From positions 416,001 through 480,000 of the forward strand of contig CAWHBU010000002.1 of NCBI GenBank assembly GCA_963827685.1: a stretch of 64,000 bases of DNA, in the 5' to 3' direction. The position numbers were made by a program, and so were the translations under genes. Under the pieces are notes generated by a model, which searched no databases, was not told the DNA's origin, and saw only the letters and a list, made by a program, of their open reading frames with translations. Shown one piece after another: positions 12,322 to 36,737 of the stretch. The number at the start of each line of letters is the position of its first letter. Position 1 is the stretch's first letter. The DNA comes from an uncultured delta proteobacterium. GTDB taxonomy: Bacteria; Desulfobacterota; BSN033; UBA1163.

Positions 12322-12334
12322 TTTTCATAATATA

Positions 12335-12453
12335 CTGGCCGAATTGAAATAAGCGGGGGAACCATTTTTTTTGGGGGTGAATTCCAGAAATCCTGGAAAG
12401 GATATCCCTTAATTCTAACCCGTCAGCTAACCCCGCAGGCGACTAAGGGAGAG
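12335..12453 (+). ncRNA. c-di-AMP (ydaO/yuaA) riboswitch
   Basis: Conserved blocks GCCGAAT, CGGGGGAACCA, TGGGGGTGAAT, CCCGTCAGCTAACCCCGCAGGC; upstream of a K+-type transporter operon. Confidence 0.92.
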
Positions 12454-12461
12454 AATCGAGG

Positions 12462-12492: not shown

Positions 12493-14100
12493 ATGAATAT
12501 GAAGAACGAAGTGCTGAAAGAAGCTTCTTGCCCGGTGGAGAAAGTGGAACTCCGTAGAGACGTGACGGTTTGGGGTTCCTATATGTGGGGATATGCTGAT
12601 GTCGGAGCGGACATCTATGCCGCCCTGGGTTTGGTGATGGGAGCTGCTCATGGTGGAGCGAGCCTTGCCTTTTTTGTGGCTGGCCTCATCTATATCATGA
12701 TCGGACTCTCCTATACGGAGATGGCGTCGACCTACCCAGTTGCTGGAGGAGGCCATTACTATGCGCTAAGGGGTTTGGGGGACTTTTGGGGATATGCGGC
12801 GGGGGTGGCCCTTCTGTTGGACTACACCATTGATATTGCCCTCTTTGCTACTGCCTCGGCTGGGTATATGAACTTCTTCATGCCTTTTGTCATAGGTGTT
12901 CCGCCGGAGTATTTTGCGATGGACATCTGGGTCTTTAAGAAAGTGAATCCTATCTGGGCAGCCGAAACGATCATCCTCATCAGCTTTCTCATCTGGCTCA
13001 ACATCCGGGGAGTCCGTGAATCCTCCCTCTTCAACGAGGTCATCGGTGCCATCGATATCATCACGGAATCGTCCATTATTGTACTGGGTTTTCTTTTCGC
13101 ATGGAAACCCGAGCTCTTCGTCTTACAATGGAAGACCCAATTTCCAACGATGAAGGAGTTCATGTATGGTTCGTCCTTAGCGATCATCTCCTTCGTGGGG
13201 TTGGAATCGATCTCCCAGGCGGCTCAAGAGACCAGAAGACCGGCCACGATCATTCCGCGAACTTCCATCACTTTGATTTTTACGGTTTTCATTTTTGCTT
13301 TGGCGTTTTCGACCATGGGTCTTGGAGTTCTCCCTTGGCAGGAATTTCCACAGGGAGATCCTGTGGCCAAACTGGCCCATGCCATTCCTATTTTTGGTGT
13401 GATGGCTGGACCCTTTGCGGCCATCCTTGGGGCAACGATCCTTCTGATCTCTTCTAATACCGGTGTCATGGGCGCGTCACGTCTCACCTATTCGATGAGC
13501 GAACTCCATCTGATCACTCCCTGGTTTGATAAAGTTCATCCGAAATATAGAACGCCGGTCCGCACTATTGTATTCTTTTCCCTCATTGGTATGCTTGAAG
13601 CGATTCTTGCGTTTCTAACACCCAGTGCCATGGATACGCTCGGGAATATGTACGCTTTTGGGGCAGCAAGTGGTTATCTCCTCGTCTTCATCTCAATGAT
13701 CAAGCTTCGGTTCTCCGATCCTTATTCTCCACGGCCGTACAAGATGCCTCTCAACATCAAATGGAATCACAAAGGGAAGACGGTAGACATCCCGGTCCTT
13801 GGATTCATCGGGATGATAGGAGTCAGTTTTATTCTTTTTGAGGTTATTCTGACCCATGAGATAGGTCGTATTGCTGGACCCGCGTGGGTGTTAGTCTGTC
13901 TCATTTATTATTTCTGGTTTCGAAAGAAAAAAGGGTTACCTTTAATGGGAAGTGTGAAGCACGACTGGGAGGAGGAACAAAAGAATATATTGACCTCCGC
14001 AGAGGAATTTGACATGCTCGAACAGTACAAAATCGCCCTGGCTGAAAGAGATAAACGGGAAAAGGAGAAGGCGTTTGGTAAAGTTACCCGAAGTTCCTGA
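12493..14100 (+). CDS. APC-family permease (possibly K+/osmolyte transporter)
   Basis: About 12 TM; YTEMASTYPVAGG, FVGLESISQAAQE, ASRLTYSM, HPKYRTP. Confidence 0.9.
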   Translation: MNMKNEVLKEASCPVEKVELRRDVTVWGSYMWGYADVGADIYAALGLVMGAAHGGASLAFFVAGLIYIMIGLSYTEMASTYPVAGGGHYYALRGLGDFWGYAAGVALLLDYTIDIALFATASAGYMNFFMPFVIGVPPEYFAMDIWVFKKVNPIWAAETIILISFLIWLNIRGVRESSLFNEVIGAIDIITESSIIVLGFLFAWKPELFVLQWKTQFPTMKEFMYGSSLAIISFVGLESISQAAQETRRPATIIPRTSITLIFTVFIFALAFSTMGLGVLPWQEFPQGDPVAKLAHAIPIFGVMAGPFAAILGATILLISSNTGVMGASRLTYSMSELHLITPWFDKVHPKYRTPVRTIVFFSLIGMLEAILAFLTPSAMDTLGNMYAFGAASGYLLVFISMIKLRFSDPYSPRPYKMPLNIKWNHKGKTVDIPVLGFIGMIGVSFILFEVILTHEIGRIAGPAWVLVCLIYYFWFRKKKGLPLMGSVKHDWEEEQKNILTSAEEFDMLEQYKIALAERDKREKEKAFGKVTRSS

Positions 14101-15956: not shown

Positions 15957-17309
15957 ATGACCGCAACAATAAGCCAGTCGCTCAATATCCTTATCGTGGA
16001 TGACGAGGTCAACATCCGCAAGACTCTGTCCGTCTGCCTTGAGACCGAAGGTCACAAAGTGATTGCTGTCAGCAACTTTCAGGATGCCTTAGCGGAGGCG
16101 TCACGAAGGTCCTTTGAACTTGCATTCGTAGATCTAAGGCTTGGTACGGAAGATGGACTGGATTTAATCCCTCCTTTGCTGGCAGCAGCGCCATGGCTTA
16201 AGGTTATTGTCATTACAGCCTACGCTTCTATCGATACGGCCGTCGAGGCCATGCGACGCGGGGCAACCGACTACATTCCGAAACCATTCACACCCGCCCA
16301 GGTAAAACTGGCGGTTAACAAGGTATTCGAAATGCGTACGCTGGAGCAAAGAGTTGCAGTTCTACAAGAAGACCTTAAACGGTTAAATCCTGAAGTGGAC
16401 TTTTCAAGTTCCAGTGCTATCATGCAGCGGGCTGTGAATCTGCTGCACCAGGTGGCCTCCACTGAAGCCACCATTCTTTTGCGCGGGGAAAGTGGAACAG
16501 GTAAGACCGTGCTCGCCCGCGCCATCCATTCCTGGAGCAAACGGGCCGACAAGCCTTTTGCCGTCATTTCCTGTCCCTCTCTTTTGCCAGAACTTCTGGA
16601 GAGCGAACTCTTTGGTCATGTAAAAGGGGCTTTTACAGGCGCTGTGCGGGATAATCCTGGCCGCATTGCAACCTGTGAAGGTGGGACCCTTTTACTGGAT
16701 GAGATCGGCGATTTACCGGCAAACCTGCAGCCAAAACTTCTGCGCTTTCTTCAGGACAGGGAGTATGAGAGGGTGGGAGATTATACAACACGAAAAGCGG
16801 ACGTCCGCATCATTGCCAGCACCAACAGGGATCTCGATAGAGCAGTCAAAGAAGGCCAGTTTCGCGAAGACCTCTTTTATCGACTCAATGTGATCCAGAT
16901 CGATATTCCCCCTTTGCGTGAACGGCCGGAGGATGTGACGATCCTTGCTGAGAGGTTATTAGCCTTTTTTGGTCGGGCCGGGCATCATCTCTTTCTCGGT
17001 TTTACCCCGGAGGCGCTTCAAGCCCTCAAACAATACCACTGGCCTGGAAACCTCAGAGAGCTGCGAAACGTTGTTGAACGGGCAGCCATTCTCTGTCAAA
17101 CAGACAAGGTTGGAATCGAATGTCTTCCTGAAAATCTGTTGCCAAGTGATTCAGGCGCGAGACCTGGCGATAGGGTCTCTTTGGAGAAAATCGAGGAGGA
17201 ACATATCCGGCGGGTGTTGGCTACGACAAAATCGCTTCAAGAGGCCGCAGATATACTCGGCATAGATCAGGCGACCCTATGGCGCCGCAGGAAGAAGTAT
17301 GGAATTTGA
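15957..17309 (+). CDS. Sigma-54-dependent response regulator (NtrC family, AlgB-like)
   Basis: REC domain; GESGTGKT, ESELFGH, GAFTGA, LLDEIG, WPGNLREL; C-terminal HTH. Confidence 0.95.
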   Translation: MTATISQSLNILIVDDEVNIRKTLSVCLETEGHKVIAVSNFQDALAEASRRSFELAFVDLRLGTEDGLDLIPPLLAAAPWLKVIVITAYASIDTAVEAMRRGATDYIPKPFTPAQVKLAVNKVFEMRTLEQRVAVLQEDLKRLNPEVDFSSSSAIMQRAVNLLHQVASTEATILLRGESGTGKTVLARAIHSWSKRADKPFAVISCPSLLPELLESELFGHVKGAFTGAVRDNPGRIATCEGGTLLLDEIGDLPANLQPKLLRFLQDREYERVGDYTTRKADVRIIASTNRDLDRAVKEGQFREDLFYRLNVIQIDIPPLRERPEDVTILAERLLAFFGRAGHHLFLGFTPEALQALKQYHWPGNLRELRNVVERAAILCQTDKVGIECLPENLLPSDSGARPGDRVSLEKIEEEHIRRVLATTKSLQEAADILGIDQATLWRRRKKYGI

Positions 17310-17341
17310 TATTAGTGGAAGGAAGGATTCGGTGCTTTGTT
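17229..17341 (+). repeat. R2 copy 1 (native 3' end of the regulator gene plus ~30 bp)
   Basis: Repeated at 27874-27986 and 29984-30094. Confidence 0.95.
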
Positions 17342-17635
17342 CCACCTACAACTAAAGAATTCTCAAAATCATTTGAACTATTGATTTCGATTTGAAAGTG
17401 AGCATAACGCTCAAGGCCAAGAGAAGTGTGAAGGCTCCTTATTGCTCGCATCAATAACATATAAAATTGGTTGCACAAAACTAACTTGAGGCATCGGTAA
17501 CCCTCAATCATTATCTTTTTCAAGGTCTGGCTTCTCTTTAAACCAGTAATCATCAGGTAAATCCTTAACCAATGTTTTAAAGCCAGTGAACGGCTTCATA
17601 TCTTCTTGGAATTTGTTCTGAGGCTTGGGCCCCGA

Positions 17636-20534: not shown

Positions 20535-20604
20535 TCCATCTTATCGATTACTGTTTGAAATGTCGTACTGAGGGAAGATTTACAAGAATCACGCTTTCAA
20601 GAAG

Positions 20605-20766
20605 AAGCTTTTGGGCGGGAGTTTGGTCGGAGGCAATCCCCAGTGGAGGTCTGAGGAGGTTGAAAGACCTTAGGAATGCAGGTAAATATTTTAGATTATT
20701 CTGTGAAGTCCGGAGACCTTTGTAACCCGTACTTATTTAACAAACTTAACTACGACCCCTGGGCAT
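20605..20766 (+). repeat. R1 copy 1 (162-bp att-arm-like repeat)
   Basis: Near-identical to 27706-27867 and 29816-29977. Confidence 0.95.
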
Positions 20767-27466: not shown

Positions 27467-27705
27467 ATTCAGTCTTATTTCTTTATCCAGGAATTAAATT
27501 CTACGAGACCTGGCTTCTTACCTATTTATCCCCCGCCACCCGCCACAATCTGAGGGTGAACTAAATATACGAAAGAACGAAGTTGAATGTCAAGAAGGAA
27601 GACAACAAGATATGAAGGAAGGTTTTAGGCCAGTATTGCAGATAACGATTACCAAATGAAAACTTGCATCATGGGCGAAATCTGTCAGCCGACGACTACA
27701 GGAAA

Positions 27706-27986
27706 AAGCTTTTGGGCGGGAGTTTGGTCGGAGGCAATCCCCAATGGAGGTCTGAGGAGGTTAAAAGACCTTAGGTTTGCAGTTAAATATTTTAGATTAT
27801 TCTGTGAAGTCCAGAGACCTTTGCAACCCGTACTTATTTAACAAACTTAACTACGCCCCCTGGGCATTAACCGAAATCGCTGCAAGAGGCCGCAGATATA
27901 CTCGGCATAGATCAGGCGACCCTATGGCGCCGCAGGAAGAAGTACGGGATTTGATATGAGTGGAAGGAAGGATTCGGTGCTTTGTT
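27706..27986 (+). repeat. R1 copy 2 + R2 copy 2
   Basis: R1 at 27706-27867, 6-bp linker TAACCG, R2 at 27874-27986. Confidence 0.95.
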
Positions 27987-28196
27987 ACGGTAGAAATAGC
28001 ATATACTAATTAAATGTATAAAGATCACATCACAACTTTTTGAAACTGCATACCCATAAGAGAAAAACACAAAATATTTTGCAGGAGTCTCTATTGAAAA
28101 CGAATCAACCCTTTTGAAATTTGTCCCGCCGGGGGGAAGTTCAGCCAATTCTTCAGAAGGCTAATTTGTTAGGTGGGTTATCATTTCCGGGTAGAT

Positions 28197-29624
28197 CTAT
28201 GAATTATTCTCCTTTGAGTGGTGACTCAATCGCGCAAGCTTCCCACGAACGGAATCAACGTACTCTTTAAGCCTATAGACCTCTCCAAAAAAAGTAAGGG
28301 GCACGCGAATTCGATGGATCGAAGCTTCGATCTGATCAAGTCTTCCCTGATATTCCAATACCCTTTCTGGCTCCGGATTTTTCATTGCATCCGATTCGAG
28401 ATTCTTTAGTTCTCCAAACCAGCGGTAGAATTTGCGGCGGTTCCGCCAGGAGTATAGCCAGGGTATGCCTCGCATTAGAGGAATCAAGACGATGGCCACC
28501 GGCACCAGGATCAAAATCAGGCGGTCAACTAAAACCGCCACCCCAAAAGGAAGGTAATCGAGCAAAAAAGGGCGGCCTTTCTTATAAAATCTCTCCGCAG
28601 AGGTGGACAACGGAAAATCCAGTTCCTTAGGCGAGGGGAATTCTCCTCTCTTATTCAACCAGCCGGCCCTGCTGTGAATCTCCATAGCCGCGTCCAAAAG
28701 CAGATACTGGAGAGCCGGATGCAGATTCTGGCGTACAATCAAACTTGTTGTCGTGGCGACAAGATGAATATCCTGGGGCGGTACTTTCTCCGACAGATTC
28801 AGTATTCCTTCAGGCAAAATGATATGCGACAAGGCTGGAAAAAGCCGGGTATAGGCCTCGGCATGTTTGAAACTCATCAACTTTATTTTTTCGGCGTACA
28901 GAAGTTCCCGAACGAGCGCATTGTCCTCTGTTCCGATTATCATGACTACATCCAGGGTCCCTTCGAGGAGGGCCTTATTGGCGGCGGCGCTGGGAATATC
29001 CAGCAGCAAGGTGGGAGGTTTGGCTGCACCGCTTGCCTTCAGCAAATCCAAGGAAAACTTCCGCGCCCCGCTGCCCTCTGGCCCGATGGCAATCTTCTTT
29101 CCTATAAGCCTCGAAAGGTCATCCCATGTCTCTTGGCTCCGATAAAAAACCCAGAGGGGCGAGTAGCATATTGCCCCGAGGGAAACGAGATTTTTCGTCT
29201 CGGAGGGGGAGCTTGTCCCATCCTGCACAAAACCAGCATCCACTCGCAAGGACGTATCTCCAAGACGCTTGAGGTTTTCCACCGAACCTGACGAGGGGAG
29301 TAGCTCAAGACGGACCTTTTCCCGCGCCAGGATTTTTTTGTACCGCTCACCAAAATTTGCGTAAGTCCCTCGTTCGAACCCAGTGCTCATGGTCAAAGTA
29401 TCCGGAGGTGTCAAATGATAGGCTATGACGATGGAGATGAGGGCGGTTAACAGTACCGAGGCAATAACCACCAGAAGCCTGCGATTTCGTATACCAGGAA
29501 TGAATTTTCGTCCCATTTTCGGTTCTTTGGGCATGTTACACTCCCATGCAGGCAAAGCTTTTGTCGCCGAGTAGTGATAGTGATAAAAACTTGCTTCGGG
29601 ATAGGTTGAACATACAAAAAACAA
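28197..29624 (-). CDS. TAXI-like binding protein with N- and C-terminal TM helices
   Basis: SSGSVEN, GFVQDG, KKIAIGPEGSG; true start probably later (MPKE/MGRK). Confidence 0.85.
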   Translation of the reverse strand: MFFVCSTYPEASFYHYHYSATKALPAWECNMPKEPKMGRKFIPGIRNRRLLVVIASVLLTALISIVIAYHLTPPDTLTMSTGFERGTYANFGERYKKILAREKVRLELLPSSGSVENLKRLGDTSLRVDAGFVQDGTSSPSETKNLVSLGAICYSPLWVFYRSQETWDDLSRLIGKKIAIGPEGSGARKFSLDLLKASGAAKPPTLLLDIPSAAANKALLEGTLDVVMIIGTEDNALVRELLYAEKIKLMSFKHAEAYTRLFPALSHIILPEGILNLSEKVPPQDIHLVATTTSLIVRQNLHPALQYLLLDAAMEIHSRAGWLNKRGEFPSPKELDFPLSTSAERFYKKGRPFLLDYLPFGVAVLVDRLILILVPVAIVLIPLMRGIPWLYSWRNRRKFYRWFGELKNLESDAMKNPEPERVLEYQGRLDQIEASIHRIRVPLTFFGEVYRLKEYVDSVRGKLARLSHHSKENNS

Positions 29625-29815
29625 AGGAGTAGGTCAAGAAAAATCACCAGAAAAATCACCACAAGATATGGGAGTGTCCTCCTTATCCGTTTGAGACCCA
29701 ACCCACCAATAAAAAAGTGAGGGAGGACTTTGGAGGGTCAAGAAAATAACACTGATGATTACCAATTCACATCGAGCATGCTTGGCCAAAGTGTCGGGTT
29801 GTTGACCTCAGTAAT

Positions 29816-30094
29816 AAGTTTTTGGGCGGGAGTTTGGTCGGAGGCAATCCCCAAGGGAGGTCTATCGAGGTTAAAAGACCTTAGGAATGCAGTTAAATAT
29901 TTTGAATTATTTTGTGAAGTCCAGAGACCTTTGTAACCCGTACTTATTTAACAAACTTAACTACGTCCCTTGGGCATTAACCAAAATCGCTTCAAGAGGC
30001 CGCAGATATACTCGGCATAGATCAGGCGACCCTATGGCGCCGCAGGGAGAAGTACGGGATTTGATATTAGTGGAAGGAAGGATTCGGTGCTTTG
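29816..30094 (+). repeat. R1 copy 3 + R2 copy 3
   Basis: R1 at 29816-29977, linker TAACCA, R2 at 29984-30094. Confidence 0.95.
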
Positions 30095-30157
30095 GTACGC
30101 CTACAAGTCATTGCTGGGAACCGTATTCAAGGATCGAAGATTACGGGATGAAAGAGA

Positions 30158-30235
30158 GGCTAACGTTCGCGTTCAGTGGCGGGAGCCAGTGGGCGAAGCC
30201 CCCTGGTGACCGTCCACTACAACGCGGGGTTAGCC
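30158..30235 (-). other. Integron attC site
   Basis: Minus strand GGCTAAC-CCCGCGTTGTAGTGGAC...CACTGAACGCGAAC-GTTAGCC, an imperfect palindrome starting 1 nt after the stop codon. Confidence 0.88.
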
Positions 30236-30236
30236 G

Positions 30237-31064
30237 TCATTTCGCAAGTGTGGTTATGAGTCTTCCGCCTGGGCTTAGGACCCGGAAGTCCTCGATGACT
30301 TCATCGTCATTGCTCGCAATGGCACCGGCAAGAGAACCGAGGATGACGTACGCCATGTCATGCACGGAGTGCTCGGCGCGCTCAAGCACGCGGGCAGTAG
30401 GACTTGTCGGTACGTTGCACTGGTACCGTTCGAAGATGCGAAGAGCGGCGAGCAATTGGCATTGAACCCACCTGAACCACGCCCAATCGGGACTGATTTC
30501 CGCAGGCATCGGCGCCTTTGGTGGAAGATCTTCTCGTAAGAAGGATGCATACACAGTGCGGACAACCTCGGGATTCGTGGCGACCCTGGTCCGGGCTGCT
30601 GCAACCGCAGCAGGAAAGTCTCGGAACTCGATTCCGATCAACTCCGGGAAAAACGCATGGACCGACTGGCAACGCCGGAGAAACGACTGCGCGTCTTGGT
30701 AGACCTGGTTGCGCCATGACTGGAGGGTTTCGAGAATCTCACCTCCGGCTATGTAGGTTCCGTTGCGCAGCTTCGGATTGAAGATGTACGAACCCTGGAT
30801 GACGTGCCGTTCAAGCGGACCGCATGGGGATTGGTTCTCGATCTCTGTACGCAGTAAGGTGCCTACGTTCGGGAGAAGCGCGAATGAGCCTGGGCGACTT
30901 GGCAGCTTCGAAAAGCACCGCACTTGGCTCTTCGGGCTCGCGGTCATGAGCTCGTAGAACAGATTCTGGGAAACCATGACTGAGTGGTCTCGACACAGCG
31001 CGGTGATCAACTCTGATGGCGCGCCATCGAGGTAGCTCTTATCGAGTATAAGCGCGGCGGACAC
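30237..31064 (-). CDS. Cassette-borne PIN-like domain protein
   Basis: LILDKSYL, FYELM and HDMAYV...ASND acidic pattern; GTG start just inside the GTTAGCC cassette boundary (31074-31080). Confidence 0.6.
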   Translation of the reverse strand: MSAALILDKSYLDGAPSELITALCRDHSVMVSQNLFYELMTASPKSQVRCFSKLPSRPGSFALLPNVGTLLRTEIENQSPCGPLERHVIQGSYIFNPKLRNGTYIAGGEILETLQSWRNQVYQDAQSFLRRCQSVHAFFPELIGIEFRDFPAAVAAARTRVATNPEVVRTVYASFLREDLPPKAPMPAEISPDWAWFRWVQCQLLAALRIFERYQCNVPTSPTARVLERAEHSVHDMAYVILGSLAGAIASNDDEVIEDFRVLSPGGRLITTLAK

Positions 31065-31162
31065 GCTGGTGGCGGCTAACTTATTTTTTATGCTGCTTCC
31101 ACATTTTCGTAAGTCTTGAACCAATAAAGGCTCTCTTCTACTCAAAACCGCATGCCAGGACA

Positions 31163-31846
31163 CTACTGACCTATAAGTGCAGTCCATAAGTTAAAGGAGA
31201 CACGGGCTACGAGATCTCGCCATGTAGCATACACGCGCATCGATGCTCCGCGAGTTGATGGAACTTTTGGCGTAACTTTAAGTTTCTCGCTTAAAGCCCA
31301 CATAGTATTCTGAATATTCTTAATTAGAGGATAGCGATGCCAGGTCGGAAGTTTGTTCACATCGAAAAACCCGAATGGTAGGTTCCTTTCACCGAACTTT
31401 AAATTCTCGGGCCATAAATATCGCTCCCTATCGTTCTGTGGGTGTACGACCCCGCTAGTGTAATCATGTTTCCAGTTCGAGAAGGTCTCAGCAACTGCTG
31501 CAAATAGTCTTTGGGATACAACCACAACATCTAAGTCAGAGTTTTCGCCAAATGGTCGGCCAAAATTTGTACGCCCAGCCATGGAAAAGCCTATTCGGGC
31601 GCCACCAACGACAGTGATCTCCTTCGGGCACACCTCAAGACGGATCCCCAACCACCGTCGCAGTTCTTCGTATGTGCCCGGGCAGTCGCGGAAAGCAAAC
31701 GGCGCTCCCTCAGTCAGCCAAAGTCGAACCACATGTTCCCTCGATCGTTTAGAGACATCGACGAGGGCTGCCCGAAATTCTTCAGGCGAGGGGTACTGGG
31801 CTAACAGCTTTTGTAAGCTTTCTTGAACCTCGAAAGGCTGAGCCAT
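31163..31846 (-). CDS. Pol-beta-superfamily nucleotidyltransferase
   Basis: VVGGARIGFS...SDLDVVVV (hG[GS]...DxD). Confidence 0.75.
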   Translation of the reverse strand: MAQPFEVQESLQKLLAQYPSPEEFRAALVDVSKRSREHVVRLWLTEGAPFAFRDCPGTYEELRRWLGIRLEVCPKEITVVGGARIGFSMAGRTNFGRPFGENSDLDVVVVSQRLFAAVAETFSNWKHDYTSGVVHPQNDRERYLWPENLKFGERNLPFGFFDVNKLPTWHRYPLIKNIQNTMWALSEKLKVTPKVPSTRGASMRVYATWRDLVARVSFNLWTALIGQ

Positions 31847-32495
31847 GTTTTGCGATTCCAAGATAGTCATATGTGCCATCAGCAATGTGGGTCCAGTAAA
31901 ATCTTTTCAAGTACTTCATTCTTTGTTCGATTTGTATAACCCGTTGGAGAGGAGAGATTCTAGGCTCCGGGTATTTGAGCCGTGCAACAATAGCTGCAGC
32001 GTCATCCAATGACAAGTTATTGGGCTGGAGCTTAAGACGACAACACGCTTGAATATAGTTGTTCATTTGCCAACCATAGTATCCAATTGCCAGGTAAACC
32101 GATGGGCTAACAGATTTTGGGAAATGGGCTGCGACGAGCGACGCTAGCATTATCTCGCCGAGCTTCCGGCGAAGGGTTAGTTCAAACCGGTTGGTGACGA
32201 CGCGAACTATTTGTTGTTCGATGGTGCTCGCTCCCTCGCGACGCCCACTAGTGAAATGTCGGAAGATTGCACGACAAATAGCATAGATGTCAAAACCCGG
32301 ATGACATCCATGGCGGTGATCCTCTGCGGAAACGAGTAGACGTTGTGCCACCAGAGGTGGAACCAACTCGGGGTGAGTCCGATGAAAGGCGATTAGCTCA
32401 TCAACACGGGAGTGAACGAACACCCACTCACGTTGCAGTAAAACCCTTGCAAAGGTACGGACTATTGCGCCAAGAATCTGTTGAGAGTAAAGCAT
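31782..32495 (-). CDS. Stand-alone GT51 (peptidoglycan transglycosylase) domain protein
   Basis: AEDHRHGCHPGFD, GASTIEQQ, RRKLGE, YLAIGYYG; no clear TM anchor. Confidence 0.85.
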   Translation of the reverse strand: MLYSQQILGAIVRTFARVLLQREWVFVHSRVDELIAFHRTHPELVPPLVAQRLLVSAEDHRHGCHPGFDIYAICRAIFRHFTSGRREGASTIEQQIVRVVTNRFELTLRRKLGEIMLASLVAAHFPKSVSPSVYLAIGYYGWQMNNYIQACCRLKLQPNNLSLDDAAAIVARLKYPEPRISPLQRVIQIEQRMKYLKRFYWTHIADGTYDYLGIAKHGSAFRGSRKLTKAVSPVPLA

Positions 32496-32520
32496 ATTTC
32501 AATTGTCACTTTGCAGTAGT

Positions 32521-32549
32521 AATATACATTTTTTTTGAAATCTTTGGAA
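32521..32549 (-). promoter_or_regulatory. Sigma-70 promoter of the GT51-NTase pair
   Basis: TTCCAA-17-TATATT. Confidence 0.55.
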
Positions 32550-32593
32550 GTGTGGACTTCAGAAACAAGGAAACAAAAAAAGGCAGAGCTTTT

Positions 32594-33034
32594 TTACCTG
32601 CCCGCTGCGATCCGCTTCAGTGCTGGACTATTGCCGCATTTTCTAACCCCGCAGTCAGTCTCCGCATACGCACACCTGATTGGGTGGCCGAGCATAATGT
32701 CAGGTCTTCGGCCATATACGCTTATTGAACTCCTTGGCTCCAGACGTCGCGGCCAGGGACCGCCATCCACCAAGATAGGGTTGATAAAAACTCCACGCTT
32801 GTCAGTTCCGCGGTATAGGATCCCGACCTCCCTGATGGTAACGGGGAACGTACTGAGGTTGGTTACGGCGATGTAGAAATTGACGGAGGGATCGGCACCG
32901 CCGACAGGGATCGCATGGCCGGGGGCGACCTTCAGCTTGACGCGGGAAGCGTCAATCGCTCGCCACGTGTTGATGACCCCGAGTACTGCACCCACCATGG
33001 CAATCGCAAACGTTATGGCCTCGACCACTGTCAA
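32594..33034 (-). CDS. Cassette-borne hypothetical protein with N-terminal TM
   Basis: RBS AGGAGG just after the GTTAGAG boundary; one TM followed by a beta-rich domain. Confidence 0.7.
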   Translation of the reverse strand: MTVVEAITFAIAMVGAVLGVINTWRAIDASRVKLKVAPGHAIPVGGADPSVNFYIAVTNLSTFPVTIREVGILYRGTDKRGVFINPILVDGGPWPRRLEPRSSISVYGRRPDIMLGHPIRCAYAETDCGVRKCGNSPALKRIAAGR

Positions 33035-33050
33035 TGTTGATCCTCCTGTA

Positions 33051-33110
33051 GCTCTAACACAAAAATCAGCCGAGAGTGTAACGAGTCAGCTGGATTGATT
33101 TGATTAAGAG
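33051..33110 (-). other. Degenerate short attC site
   Basis: TCTTAA(T)C-AAATC-AATCCAGCTGAC...GGCTGATTTTTGT-GTTAGAG; hairpin with an extrahelical base; overlaps the stop codon. Confidence 0.75.
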
Positions 33111-33481
33111 TCCTCGTTAATTGACTGCGGAAGCACAATAGGAACCTGAAATTTGATCCTGCTCACAACACTGTCTCTGTCCGAGACTCCACCCCCACCG
33201 CCAATTCCAATACCTGCGACTCTGAGAGATAAACCACCCTTTACTTCGGACGTTGAATCGGTAGTTACGGCCACGTCGAAATCCACGAAGTGGACAAGAT
33301 TTCTGCCGACCGTTGCAAAGTACTTGCCCTTAGGTGCCGAGTCTGCTCCGTACATAACAGCCGGATTAATGACATCGGGTTCAGACGATTGTTTTCCGGG
33401 GAGGCGTGTAGCCTTTTGCGCCTTCTTAACCCCGGCAATGATCTGTCGAAGAGACGTGTCTACGAAGTCCTCAAGGGTCAT
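33104..33481 (-). CDS. Trypco2-like protein
   Basis: LEDFV..SLRQI..GV..AQ, VDFDVAVT, Gly-rich hairpin, SRIKFQVP. Confidence 0.65.
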   Translation of the reverse strand: MTLEDFVDTSLRQIIAGVKKAQKATRLPGKQSSEPDVINPAVMYGADSAPKGKYFATVGRNLVHFVDFDVAVTTDSTSEVKGGLSLRVAGIGIGGGGGVSDRDSVVSRIKFQVPIVLPQSINEDS

Positions 33482-33535
33482 TTGTGGCCTCCTTTTTCTC
33501 AGAAAGCTCGTAACATTTATTTTTTAGTTGGTTAT

Positions 33536-34054
33536 TTACTGTCTTATCCGAACCAGTATGTTGATTACCCTTCTCTTCCCTTCCTCGATTAGGTCTTGAG
33601 CATCGAACCGAGCTTTCTCTTCTCCTTTCTGCTGTGCCGCTACCAGGATACCATATGGTGAATTGGCAGCCAAGCTATACATAGAGCTGTAGTAGCTCGA
33701 TTGATAGTATCTAAACATCTCAAGAGGATATTGGCATTGTGAAACCGCTGCCTCTGCAATCTCTGTGGCAGATGCCGAAGCCCGGGCGTTTTTTAGGCCA
33801 TAATCACTCATACAATTGAGAAAATCCTCCCTGCATTTAAGTGCTTTATCCCCGGCCTTTTTTGCAAGCTCAAGCGTTTCTCTTCGAGCTTCCATCATTT
33901 TGTCCTGTAACGTTGGTCCGCATCCGGGCAACCAGATTGCGATCAGAACAATAGCAGCCAAGACAAACAGTTTCTGGCGCACTATGTCTTCAACCCCCGT
34001 TATCAAAAATTCTTTTAGATCCATTTCTATCCTTCCACTCGGCATTATACACAA
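33536..34054 (-). CDS. Hypothetical lipoprotein
   Basis: Hydrophobic stretch and lipobox LPGC; true start probably later. Confidence 0.6.
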   Translation of the reverse strand: MCIMPSGRIEMDLKEFLITGVEDIVRQKLFVLAAIVLIAIWLPGCGPTLQDKMMEARRETLELAKKAGDKALKCREDFLNCMSDYGLKNARASASATEIAEAAVSQCQYPLEMFRYYQSSYYSSMYSLAANSPYGILVAAQQKGEEKARFDAQDLIEEGKRRVINILVRIRQ

Positions 34055-34399
34055 ATCTCAACAAGTAAGGAAAGTATTTCTTAATGATTTTCGTTTGAAA
34101 TATTGCATACGAAGGAGGACACCAAAAACAATATTTCAGGAAGAAATACTGACGTTCGCACTTCCTAAGAACCCAACTCTTGAAGGGCTCTCAGCGCTAA
34201 TCTTTCCTGTTTCCTTCCGCCTTGCAATTTTCAAGGTTCTTTTTTTTATTTTTTGCAATTTGCAAAACTCATCGTCAAAAAACAGATTCGAATGGCACGA
34301 ATGACACCGAATGAAGCGAATAAGAAACCATCCGTTATCATTCGGGTAAAGCGTTCGGAAAGGTCTCAAATAGATGGAATTTTCTGTGAGAATCATTCA

Positions 34400-34413
34400 G
34401 GCATGGAGTTTGC
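34400..34413 (+). promoter_or_regulatory. Sigma-54 promoter of the kinase-kdp cluster
   Basis: GGCATGGAGTTTGC (GG-N10-GC), with TTGCAA-containing motifs at 34222-34234 and 34253-34265. Confidence 0.7.
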
Positions 34414-34598
34414 TATATAGATTAGTGATTCAGACAGTAAGACTATAGACCTTAGACATTTGACTGTAGAATGAAACGCAAGGCTGAGGTTGAAAAATTC
34501 TAAATCTGAACCTGAGCCTGCACGAAGTGCTTGTCAGGGGTCTGACGTCTGAAGTCCAGTGTCTGAATTGCAGATAAAGATTAAAAGGAGGAAGTTGA

Positions 34599-36413
34599 AT
34601 GCTTGGGCTTCGGCAGAAGTTATCTCTTGGGTTCGGTGGTTTGTTGTTAATCATCTTAATTATAGGCATCCAAAGCATCATCCATCTTACCAAATTGGGA
34701 GAATCCATCGATGTCATCCTAAGGGAAAACTACCGGAGTGTCATCGCATGCCAACAAATGAAAGAGGCATTGGAGCGAATGGATAGCGGGATACTTTTTG
34801 AACTTCTCGGATATACCCAGAAAGGGGACGAACTTATCCGCAAGAATGAACTGGTTTTTGAGATGGCACTTCAAGTTGAGTTGAATAACATTACCGTTCC
34901 GGGAGAAGGAGAAAAGGCATCCCATCTCCAGGACCTTTTTGGCAAATACAAAACAGCGCTTAAGAGGATAGAGGATTCGAACGTGGCGATTACTGTCCGG
35001 CGCAATGCCTATTTTACCGATCTTTTCCCGTTATTCCTGCAGATTAAGGACACGGCCGGAGAGGTCCTCCGGATGAATCAACAGAATATGAGTGACGCGA
35101 ATGATCTGGCCCGAAATAGCGCAGCCGCAGCGCGAAGACAGATGTATATTCTTTTGGTTGCCGGTACGATTGTTGCCATCGGTTTTGTTTTCTTTACCGG
35201 CAGGTGGATTCTTCGCCCAATCAATCGCCTTATTCAATCAGCAGATGAGATCAGGCAGGGGAATCTTGATCTTGTCGTGGAGAGAGAATCCCGGGATGAA
35301 GTCGGGCACCTTTCCGAAGCCTTCAATGCAATGGCGGCAAGCCTTCGGGAATTTCGCCGGTCCGATCAGGCCAAGCTGGTTCGGATTCAACGCGCAACCC
35401 AGCAGGCATTCGACAGTCTCCCCGATGCAGTGGCGGTTGTTGACCTTCAAGGGAAAGTGGAAGTGGCAACGAAAGCAGCCGGAAACATTTTTGGGCTAAG
35501 ACCCAACACGCTCATATTTGACTTGCCATTGGGATGGATGGCTGATCTGTACAAGGACGCCCTGAAGGATGGCCGTGCTGTGCAGCAAAAAGTGGTTCAA
35601 CATTTTGTGGGGGGAGAGGAGCGATACTATCGTCCAGAGGCAATCCCAATTTTAGACAACGACAGGCAACTCACAGGGGTAATCCTTGTGCTTCAGGATG
35701 TGACACAACTCCGACAGCAGGAAGAGATAAAGAGGGGAGTCGTCTCAACGGTCTCCCATCAACTGAAGACACCGCTCACCTCCATTCGTATGGCGATCCA
35801 CCTGTTGTTAGAAGAGAAGGTAGGACCCCTTACAGAGAAGCAGGCTGAGCTTCTGGTGGCGGCCAACGAGGACAGTGATCGATTGCATAGCATCCTCAAT
35901 AACCTGCTGGATATCAGCCGAATCGAATCCGGGAGGGCTCAGATTGACTTTCGCGCGGTATCACCTCATTCGATGGTGTCAGAAGTTGTGGAGTCCTTTC
36001 GGAGAGCCGCCCAAGAACAAGGGGTATCTTTAAGCCTTGCTTTCCCGGATGATTTGCCCGAAGTTTGGGCTGACGTAACCCGAATCAACCATGTTTTTGG
36101 CAACCTGCTCTCGAATGCGCTCAAATACACGCCACCTGGAGGCAAGATTACCCTTTCTGCAAAGGCTGATGAAGAGCAGGTCCGGTTCTTCATCTCAGAT
36201 ACCGGTCAAGGTATTCCCGGTAAGTATCTCCCAAGAATTTTTGAGCAATTCTTTCGTGTGCCTGAACAAGGAACAGAGACAGGAGCAGGGCTTGGCCTTG
36301 CCATCGTGAAGGAGATCATTGAGGCTCACGGTGGGGCGATCGGGGTCGAAAGCCACGAAGGGAAGGGGACCACATTCACCTTTACCCTCCTACGCAGAAA
36401 GCCACGGGCTTAA
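34599..36413 (+). CDS. KinB-like sensor histidine kinase (4HB-HAMP-PAS-HisKA-HATPase)
   Basis: 2 TM, HAMP (DEVGHLSEAFNAM), SHQLKTP, NLLSNALKYT, GLGLAI. Confidence 0.93.
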   Translation: MLGLRQKLSLGFGGLLLIILIIGIQSIIHLTKLGESIDVILRENYRSVIACQQMKEALERMDSGILFELLGYTQKGDELIRKNELVFEMALQVELNNITVPGEGEKASHLQDLFGKYKTALKRIEDSNVAITVRRNAYFTDLFPLFLQIKDTAGEVLRMNQQNMSDANDLARNSAAAARRQMYILLVAGTIVAIGFVFFTGRWILRPINRLIQSADEIRQGNLDLVVERESRDEVGHLSEAFNAMAASLREFRRSDQAKLVRIQRATQQAFDSLPDAVAVVDLQGKVEVATKAAGNIFGLRPNTLIFDLPLGWMADLYKDALKDGRAVQQKVVQHFVGGEERYYRPEAIPILDNDRQLTGVILVLQDVTQLRQQEEIKRGVVSTVSHQLKTPLTSIRMAIHLLLEEKVGPLTEKQAELLVAANEDSDRLHSILNNLLDISRIESGRAQIDFRAVSPHSMVSEVVESFRRAAQEQGVSLSLAFPDDLPEVWADVTRINHVFGNLLSNALKYTPPGGKITLSAKADEEQVRFFISDTGQGIPGKYLPRIFEQFFRVPEQGTETGAGLGLAIVKEIIEAHGGAIGVESHEGKGTTFTFTLLRRKPRA

Positions 36414-36540
36414 GACCGCGGATGAATGCGTGGAGGGTACCCCCTCGAAGCTCCGGAGGAGCGCAGTGGGGTGTGCTTCGGAGGGTTCCGCCATTCGAAG
36501 CATGTGGAGGGGCCATGGGCTTTAGTCCATGGGGCTCCAC
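36387..36540. repeat. IS200/IS605-end-like hairpin MITE
   Basis: Paired hairpins GCCACGGGCTTAAGACCGCGG and GCCATGGGCTTTAGTCCATGG; supplies the kinase stop codon. Confidence 0.5.
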
Positions 36541-36737
36541 TCTCAGAAGGGCCGACCGAATTTCGAAAGAGGAGGATCATTCATGATGGATTTGCCTAGA
36601 AAACAACTTTCTTAAATCCCTCCCAACCTCCCTTTGCCAAAGGGAGGAATATTATCCCCCTTAGTAATCTTTTTCCTGTCAAAGACAGGCAAAAGGGGGG
36701 CGAGGGGGGATTACAGATTTGGATCATTGGGTCACCT

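Follow-up and report, generated by a model that had tools for sequence, protein, structure and literature searches.

The 64,000-nucleotide stretch of DNA analyzed here (hereafter, the window) corresponds to positions 416,001 to 480,000 of contig CAWHBU010000002.1 (GenBank assembly GCA_963827685.1) of an uncultured delta proteobacterium of the phylum Desulfobacterota. According to the listing of its open reading frames (ORFs), two overlapping ORFs of the minus strand occupy positions 31163–32549. The upstream one encodes a short glycosyltransferase of family GT51 and the downstream one a protein that likely has a divergent nucleotidyltransferase (NTase) fold. The GT51-NTase pair matches no catalogued system, no described function was found for it and, as far as sequence analysis can tell, it may be a conflict or defence system of a new type. 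The original prediction, made from the letters of the window, had proposed a two-gene operon at this interval; both ORFs were indeed present there, and they share 65 nt, an overlap which suggests a single transcript with coupled translation. The NTase ORF is open back to a TTG codon at 31885 (31163–31885), and the N-termini of its homologues align at the ATG codon at 31846, taken here as the likely start. At the related loci the NTase match was found on the same strand and near the end of the GT51 match, either overlapping it or following after a gap of between tens of bases and about 140 nt.

The 237-aa GT51 protein matched the Transgly profile PF00912 with an E-value of 1.7e-22 and 80.1 bits (cut-off 27) over profile positions 23–173 of 178. 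All five motifs that we take to be those of the family were present, including both catalytic glutamates, and the ED, GAST.EQQ and RK..E motifs that had been read from the sequence were located at E58-D59, G88-A-S-T-I-E-Q-Q95 and R110-K111..E114, respectively. Among homologues, E58 and D59 were kept in 78 of 78 proteins and E114 in 77 of 78, and several invariant blocks were specific to this family (EDHRH.xHPGFD, GYYGWxMN and ARLKYPEP). The predicted lack of a transpeptidase and of a clear membrane anchor was also confirmed. The transpeptidase domain (PF00905) was not found in this protein by the Pfam search, and no transmembrane segment or anchor was detected by hydropathy, the maximal 19-residue Kyte-Doolittle mean being 1.12. 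The host genome keeps four more GT51 proteins besides that of the module, and their N-terminal anchors reach 1.7–2.7 on this measure. Residues 2–19 form an amphipathic helix (hydrophobic moment 0.50) and the C-terminal tail (residues 215–237) is disordered. The AlphaFold2 (AF2) model had a predicted local distance difference test score (pLDDT) of 82.8. Its best Foldseek matches, with E-values from 2.4e-5 to 1e-4, were Staphylococcus aureus MtgA (3vmt_A, E 2.4e-5) and the glycosyltransferase domain of Aquifex PBP1a (3nb6). The NCBIfam models of penicillin-binding proteins (PBPs) and of MtgA matched the protein far under their cut-offs (43 vs. 183 bits for MtgA).

The association of both genes was studied from either side. 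From the GT51 side, 80 loci with a short GT51 gene were obtained by scanning one genome per species, and in 73 of them tblastn located an NTase gene directly downstream with the same orientation; a divergent copy at a further locus (L068) raises this figure to 74 of 80. The related loci come from more than 10 phyla. The search from the NTase side gave 29 loci, of which 26 have a short GT51 gene upstream and two (L123 and L127) a gene for a long soluble PBP, while the contig of the remaining one ends too early for the upstream gene to be seen, so that a GT51 partner precedes the NTase in all 28 assessable loci. At least six natural fusions were also identified, in which the Transgly domain is N-terminal and the NTase C-terminal (cluster representatives P0186, P0202, P0272, P0294, P0309, and P0262). 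Co-conservation of the pair, on which the original prediction had been made to depend in advance, was therefore found, and the 74 of 80 loci, the 28 of 28 loci and the fusion proteins indicate that the pairing is not due to chance. In addition, the bit scores of GT51 and NTase correlate across loci (rho 0.42, p 2e-4). No third conserved gene was found, since no other neighbor was common to more than six of the 80 loci, and the 146- and 316-aa proteins that flank the pair in the window have no relatives in these loci. One of the fusions, P0262 (634 aa, metagenomic), has some 180 extra C-terminal residues without Pfam family; another natural fusion measures 452 aa.

A search of 1.84 billion cluster representatives assigned 1,286 clusters to the NTase family at E ≤ 1e-3, and 414 relatives of the GT51 protein were recovered at the same threshold among the candidates of a word-indexed search. 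Cultured carriers of the pair include Pandoraea eparura, Chitinibacter tainanensis, Pseudoduganella ginsengisoli, Gilliamella sp., and Soonwooa buanensis. The NTase gave no match in the phage genome collection. In IMG/VR, the GT51 alignment found no relative and the NTase alignment two loci, and one record of the plasmid collection carries the pair.

The assignment of the 227-aa protein as a Pol-beta NTase stood in part. The protein carries the announced motif, with GG at residues 81–82 and S103-D104-L-D106, and the only invariant columns among 61 diverse homologues were G81, G86, S103, D104, and D106. Over 72 homologues, G81 was kept in all, D104 and D106 in 70 each and D162 in 64, and position 82 was serine in 69. 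In the AF2 model (pLDDT 91.1), a helix and a strand are followed by G81-G/S82, a strand bearing D104-x-D106, helices and a strand bearing D162. We take this order to be that of the Pol-beta nucleotidyltransferase core. The hG[GS]...[DE]h[DE]h signature and a third carboxylate (D162) on the next strand were thus both found, the strands being read from the model. The hidden Markov model libraries did not recognize the protein: it had no match in Pfam, NCBIfam or PADLOC, a Pfam search of all 23 members of the NTase alignment returned no NTase family, and the one PHROG match (phrog_32008, E 2e-7) has no annotated function. Likewise, the NTase profile found no NTase among PDB sequences, Foldseek of the model against PDB gave nothing at E ≤ 0.001, and hhalign against the seven PF01909 proteins of the same genome yielded a probability of 5%. 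The clusters returned by the ESM Atlas had no names, except for one with PF01909 in 11% of its members.

Structural comparison with MNT proteins, CD-NTases (cGAS/DncV-like nucleotidyltransferases) and HalB had been proposed. The best VIA match among 48,161 chains was the minimal NTase HI0073 (Z 5.0, root mean square deviation 3.7, 93 residues), and three further minimal NTases scored Z 3.5–4.3, all of them tied with unrelated alpha/beta folds. After rescoring of the Foldseek list, 13 of the 18 rows with Z ≥ 2 were Pol-beta NTases scoring 2.0–3.3 (CdnD, AadA, CutA, PAPD1, Pol X, Cid1, and Tut1), and HalB did not appear among the matches listed. The motif, the order of strands in the model and these weak structural matches make a divergent Pol-beta NTase fold likely. 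In both runs in which the complex of the GT51 protein with the NTase was predicted, made without control runs, the interaction score (ipSAE) was 0.00, which speaks neither for nor against contact between them.

Several loci depart from the two-gene arrangement. At six GT51 loci (L047, L052, L062, L073, L074, and L076) there is no NTase, and a protein with one transmembrane helix and a beta-rich remainder is encoded beside GT51, mostly upstream and overlapping. A Bacteroidetes metagenome-assembled genome (MAG) contains a three-gene operon (L127:2029–4678) for a membrane protein of 163 aa, which is the first gene, a soluble class A PBP of 488 aa and an NTase of 259 aa. This PBP has no anchor, and its transpeptidase domain is recognized with an E-value of 1.3e-6 and shows visible SxxK and KTG motifs; the long partner of L123 (448+ aa) is likewise a soluble protein with GT51 and transpeptidase domains. 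The one-helix membrane partner matched no Pfam and no PADLOC family. Its nearest named look-alikes were the Cap15 cyclic-dinucleotide receptor effectors, with a feature score of 0.85 and a TM score of 0.59, both under the bar of the tool, and this likeness is to be taken as a lead only. Finally, a metagenomic protein of 426 aa (P0185) consists of a CE4 polysaccharide deacetylase (PF01522, E 4.6e-20) fused to a short GT51, without signal peptide. These variants, P0185 and the soluble PBPs, all join peptidoglycan-directed domains, none with export signals.

The pair is an accessory, patchily distributed and horizontally mobile module. Its NTase profile was detected in two of 55 genomes of the order, the source genome and one other (G025), and in none of the 14 other genomes of the genus. 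The segment of the window at 30.1–34.1 kb is missing from 12 genomes of the same genus. The flanks of this segment, from the gene for a histidine kinase at 34.6 kb onward, share 85–94% identity with G010, G008, and G002, and G010 carries about 3 kb of different DNA between the same flanks, which defines a variable hot spot at positions 30100–34140. Elsewhere, the pair was found in a defence island of the Aliarcobacter plasmid pM830MA, among IS21, AAA ATPase plus HNH, DUF4365, PLD, TIR, and DUF4917 genes. One of the IMG/VR loci (L134) has it between a tyrosine and a serine recombinase, and the other (L133) beside a methyltransferase, an SRAP gene and umuDC.

The claim that the pair lies between integron cassettes had to be abandoned. 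A family of attC-like inverted repeats was not found at positions 29500–34700 of the window, and no protein of the whole genome reached the cut-off of 265 of the integron integrase model TIGR02249, the best score being 191 bits on another contig. That score belongs to a 141-aa ORF (L081; G000:C3:782919–783275, in the source genome) matching only the C-terminal 119 positions of the model, which is possibly a truncated IntI-like gene.

The neighborhoods of the module were examined on random samples drawn from 574 neighboring ORFs with a minimum length of 120 aa. Of 150 sampled neighbors, 67 could be assigned to no Pfam family at E ≤ 1e-5, and 21 of the 150, from 14 loci, were of defence, toxin-antitoxin, restriction-modification or mobile type according to our reading of the family names. 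PARIS-like, HEC-01, GmrSD/HEC-06, IetS, and type I/III restriction-modification genes were neighbors in some loci, and a minority of the loci sit in clear defence islands. As for known systems, both proteins of the window matched none of the 5027 models of PADLOC-DB 2.0.0 (2023 library) at E ≤ 1, and the fusions, the long PBP variant and the membrane partner matched no PADLOC family at E ≤ 0.01. A full-text literature search, with subscription journals and supplements outside its range, found no description of a GT51-NTase pair. These searches did not contradict the original prediction, in which no described system with a GT51 partner had been recognized.

The features of the pair and of the variable segment are collected in Table 1. 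The promoter that had been announced upstream of the pair may correspond to two elements with a 17-nt spacer. Its −35 element agrees with the consensus at only three of six positions, and it was not among the promoters listed by the consensus scan. The terminator-like hairpin with its run of T sits where the upstream 146-aa gene has its stop codon, and would plausibly set this gene apart from the GT51-NTase pair. It was absent from the scan list, the scan admitting loops of up to 8 nt and the hairpin having one of 11 nt. Both signals are only plausible candidates. The four other proteins of the variable segment belong to no Pfam, NCBIfam, PHROG or PADLOC family. One of them, the 146-aa protein, begins with a hydrophobic helix, is beta-rich in the rest of its length and is superficially like the Cap15-like partner of other loci. 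It was considered as a counterpart of that partner and rejected as unrelated (hhalign probability 0.3%).

Table 1. Features of the GT51-NTase pair and of the variable segment around it (positions in the window).
Feature	Position	Strand	Length	Details
GT51 gene	31782..32495	-	237 aa	ORF, PF00912
NTase-like gene	31163..31846	-	227 aa	From likely ATG 31846
Overlap of GT51 3' end and NTase 5' end	31782..31846	-	65 nt	
Candidate promoter of the pair	32521..32549	-		TTCCAA (32549-32544), 17-nt spacer, TATATT (32526-32521)
Putative terminator-like hairpin	32575..32602	-		GGCAG 32602-32598 / CTGCC 32586-32582, 11-nt loop, T7 32581-32575
Gene of variable segment	30237-31187		316 aa	
Gene of variable segment	32594-33034	-	146 aa	
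Gene of variable segment	33104-33481		125 aa	
Gene of variable segment	33536-34054		172 aa	

Dispersed repeats border the variable segment. Short ones, perhaps MITE- or REP-like and with copies on several contigs, were found at positions 31078–31147, 34085–34146, 34425–34574, and 36380–36712; the NTase stop codon is immediately followed by that at 31078–31147, and the segment's far edge carries others. In addition, two direct repeat copies of about 290 nt and 93% identity (27699–27989 and 29809–30099) flank a gene for a 475-aa protein (28197–29624). Partial copies of this repeat were located at 20598–20766, at 17227–17351 and on other contigs, and most genomes of the genus contain sequences similar to it. 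In another part of the window, a cyclic di-AMP riboswitch (RF00379, 91.7 bits, E 3e-20) was identified on the plus strand at 12327–12456, just upstream of a 535-aa ORF (12493–14100).

The interpretation that we favor, tentatively and at less than even confidence, is that the pair forms one mobile accessory two-enzyme conflict module, be it toxin-antitoxin, abortive infection or defence, in which GT51 would consume or derail lipid II and the NTase would restrain or complete this action. The catalytic residues of both enzymes are kept, and GT51 has no export signal. The GT51 enzyme probably acts inside the cell, because the NTase needs cytoplasmic nucleoside triphosphates (NTPs) and is sometimes fused to it. 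Lipid II at the inner leaflet of the membrane is the one known GT51 substrate that is available in the cytoplasm, and an effector consuming it would fit the catalytic motifs, which are intact, and the cytoplasmic location. The amphipathic N-terminal helix might hold GT51 at the inner face of the membrane, where it would meet lipid II, or another glycan linked to undecaprenyl pyrophosphate, before flipping. By polymerizing or consuming this substrate it would trap the undecaprenyl carrier, wall synthesis would stop and the infected cell would cease to grow or die. The NTase, which we take to be the obligate partner, could keep GT51 in check by nucleotidylation, by analogy with MntA, which nucleotidylates HepT, or could transfer a nucleotide onto the substrate bound by GT51. 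In some lineages a Cap15-like one-helix membrane protein may join or replace the NTase as a further effector or regulator. The data favor neither a signal-making NTase nor one that modifies its partner or substrate. We also considered, as credible but unlikely, a new class of immunity or addiction in which a cytoplasmic GT51 takes inner-leaflet lipid II and, with the NTase, polymerizes it or caps it with a nucleotide (for instance at the acceptor hydroxyl). The resulting dead-end precursor would turn off wall synthesis in infected cells, and the pool of inner-leaflet lipid II, which accumulates when phage lysis proteins block its flux, would be a possible trigger.

Several observations weigh against a conflict module. 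We infer its defence role, and the toxicity, protection and substrate that it supposes are hypothetical. At the second locus of the order, in a genome of the same family (G025, L136:783–2128), the NTase gene extends over three frames beside an intact-looking GT51 gene, with an integrase gene after them, and six of the 80 GT51 loci have no NTase. An intact GT51 gene beside a broken NTase gene or without one is hard to square with a lethal toxin that only the NTase neutralizes. That genome is an incomplete MAG, and the breaks may be either decay or an assembly error. Copies of one or the other gene that are broken come mostly from long-read MAGs and are indistinguishable from assembly errors, and the pattern of pseudogenes was for this reason discarded as a clue to which gene is the toxin. 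The structural scores behind the NTase fold are weak. The enrichment of defence genes that had been expected was obtained only after curation: at E ≤ 1e-10, PADLOC families were matched by 16 of 100 sampled neighbors and by three of 43 window genes outside the island (p 0.18), and after removal of ABC transporters, polymerase, methyltransferase, and NUDIX families by 11 of 100 vs. none of 43 (p 0.03). The control is a single unmatched region, formed by those 43 genes, and the enrichment is suggestive only. Furthermore, many loci have housekeeping neighbors (rpoC, gyrA, sodA, and catalase), and the neighboring genes in the window itself gave no defence match in PADLOC. Finally, that two enzymes are fused would be no less expected of a pathway with two steps than of a toxin-antitoxin pair.

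This last point bears on a non-conflict accessory function in the envelope or in resistance, which would be either a two-step cytoplasmic glycolipid pathway or an NTase like the aminoglycoside nucleotidyltransferases that inactivates a sugar-containing antibiotic with a GT51-like binding helper. Enzyme-enzyme fusions are typical of consecutive pathway steps, the CE4 deacetylase and transpeptidase fusions suggest glycan processing, and the aminoglycoside adenylyltransferase AadA was among the structural matches (Z 2.9–3.2). Metabolic neighbors are frequent, and resistance genes are likewise patchy and mobile. However, no flippases, other glycosyltransferases or precursor genes are co-conserved with the pair, and the tiny self-contained operon, its extreme patchiness and its integrase and defence neighbors fit a conflict module better. 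Nor would a cytoplasmic decoy shield the cell from drugs of the moenomycin type, which act outside the membrane. We regard this function as unlikely. Chance neighbors or unlinked integron cassettes, for which adjacency in a variable region would be the only argument, have a practically negligible probability and were discarded, given the co-conservation in 74 of 80 loci, the six fusions and the absence of attC repeats and of an integron integrase.

The one-helix membrane protein is an argument for a chain of sensor and signal, in which the GT51-like protein would sense wall precursors or imported muropeptides perturbed by the phage (by wall breach or by a block of lipid II flux). The NTase would then make a nucleotide signal, or the GT51 product would itself be the signal, and in some lineages the effector would be the Cap15-like protein. 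Such a beta-rich partner is encoded in six of the 80 loci and by the first gene of L127, its nearest look-alikes are the Cap15 proteins, and NTases make signals in the antiphage signaling systems based on cyclic oligonucleotides (CBASS) and their relatives. On the other side, 74 of 80 loci have no such effector gene, and in the six loci that encode the membrane protein the NTase is missing, so that no single chain of signal-maker and receptor fits all the architectures. That the two rarely occur together weakens a signal-effector scheme in its simple form. Both catalytic glutamates of GT51 are fully conserved, which also points to turnover rather than to mere binding, and the NTase has no SMODS/CD-NTase or PADLOC match. 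We consider this chain rather unlikely. If, conversely, the NTase were the toxin, it would nucleotidylate tRNA or another essential target in the manner of MenT or AbiEii, and the GT51-like protein would be its antitoxin or the sensor of the trigger. NTase toxins do exist in the AbiE and MenAT systems, the first gene of a toxin-antitoxin operon, here GT51, is often the antitoxin, and the NTase was never found without a GT51 partner in the 28 assessable loci. An antitoxin, however, would not need five GT51 motifs with invariant catalytic residues, GT51 genes occur without NTase, and no similarity to AbiEii/DUF1814 models was detected in Pfam or PADLOC; a toxic NTase is in our opinion quite improbable.

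To our knowledge, the only role described for GT51 enzymes is to build the cell wall, as exported proteins anchored in the membrane. An anchorless GT51 that is joined, in an operon or by fusion, to an enzyme needing NTPs implies chemistry on peptidoglycan precursors inside the cell, for which we know of no role. The lipid II cycle is a validated antibiotic target. If the pair were a defence or toxin system, this cycle would join the targets of bacterial immune effectors, and the module would offer a new genetically encoded way to poison it. If the pair were biosynthetic, it would point to an unknown nucleotide-linked or cytoplasmic glycan. Since cultured strains carry the pair, the module is directly testable.

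Comparison with known systems places the pair near several of them without identity to any. With MtgA and the glycosyltransferase domain of class A PBPs, the GT51 protein of the window shares the fold, the five motifs and both catalytic glutamates. Those enzymes are anchored and exported, whereas the protein of the window has no N-terminal anchor or export signal; it also differs in being accessory, mobile and tied to an NTase gene, in its own invariant blocks and in scoring far under the NCBIfam cut-offs. As regards CBASS, Cap15 has two transmembrane helices and a beta-barrel that is a cyclic-nucleotide receptor, and the partner encoded in seven loci resembles it in joining a transmembrane helix to a beta-rich domain. 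However, this partner has one helix, no CD-NTase is encoded in its operon, its scores are under the bar and its gene is absent from the window. In addition, the NTase of the window gave no SMODS/CD-NTase match in Pfam or PADLOC, and its operon has no effector gene of CBASS. The Hailong system, formed by the channel HalA and the NTase HalB, follows the same logic of a two-gene NTase-effector unit. It differs in that no channel protein is part of the module described here and no HalB-like structure was among the matches listed, although a relationship may still exist.

The HEPN-MNT systems (MntA, HI0073) are alike in the G[GS]...DxD motif, in the order of the core fold and in the two-gene operon with an enzyme as partner. 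The NTase of the window is about twice the size of an MNT protein; its N-terminal region is helical and conserved (RLWLTEGxPFAF), a spacer of 21 residues separates GS from DxD, and it matched neither PF01909 nor PF18765. The partner is an RNase of the HEPN type in those systems and GT51 here, no HEPN gene being present in the operon of the window. The only GT51-like antiphage protein found in the literature search was Audmula. It is described as a single-gene antiphage protein of lactococcal plasmids in which an N-terminal membrane domain of four to five transmembrane helices is fused to a GT51-like domain, and which acts on the wall outside the membrane (thicker wall, delayed lysis and endolysin action, endolysin escape mutants) in a non-abortive way (PMC11381338, PMC12184496). 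By this description, Audmula is set apart from the GT51 protein of the window by its multi-pass membrane topology, by having no NTase partner and by another proposed mode of action; they have in common the GT51-like domain, and Audmula provides a precedent for such a protein in phage defence.

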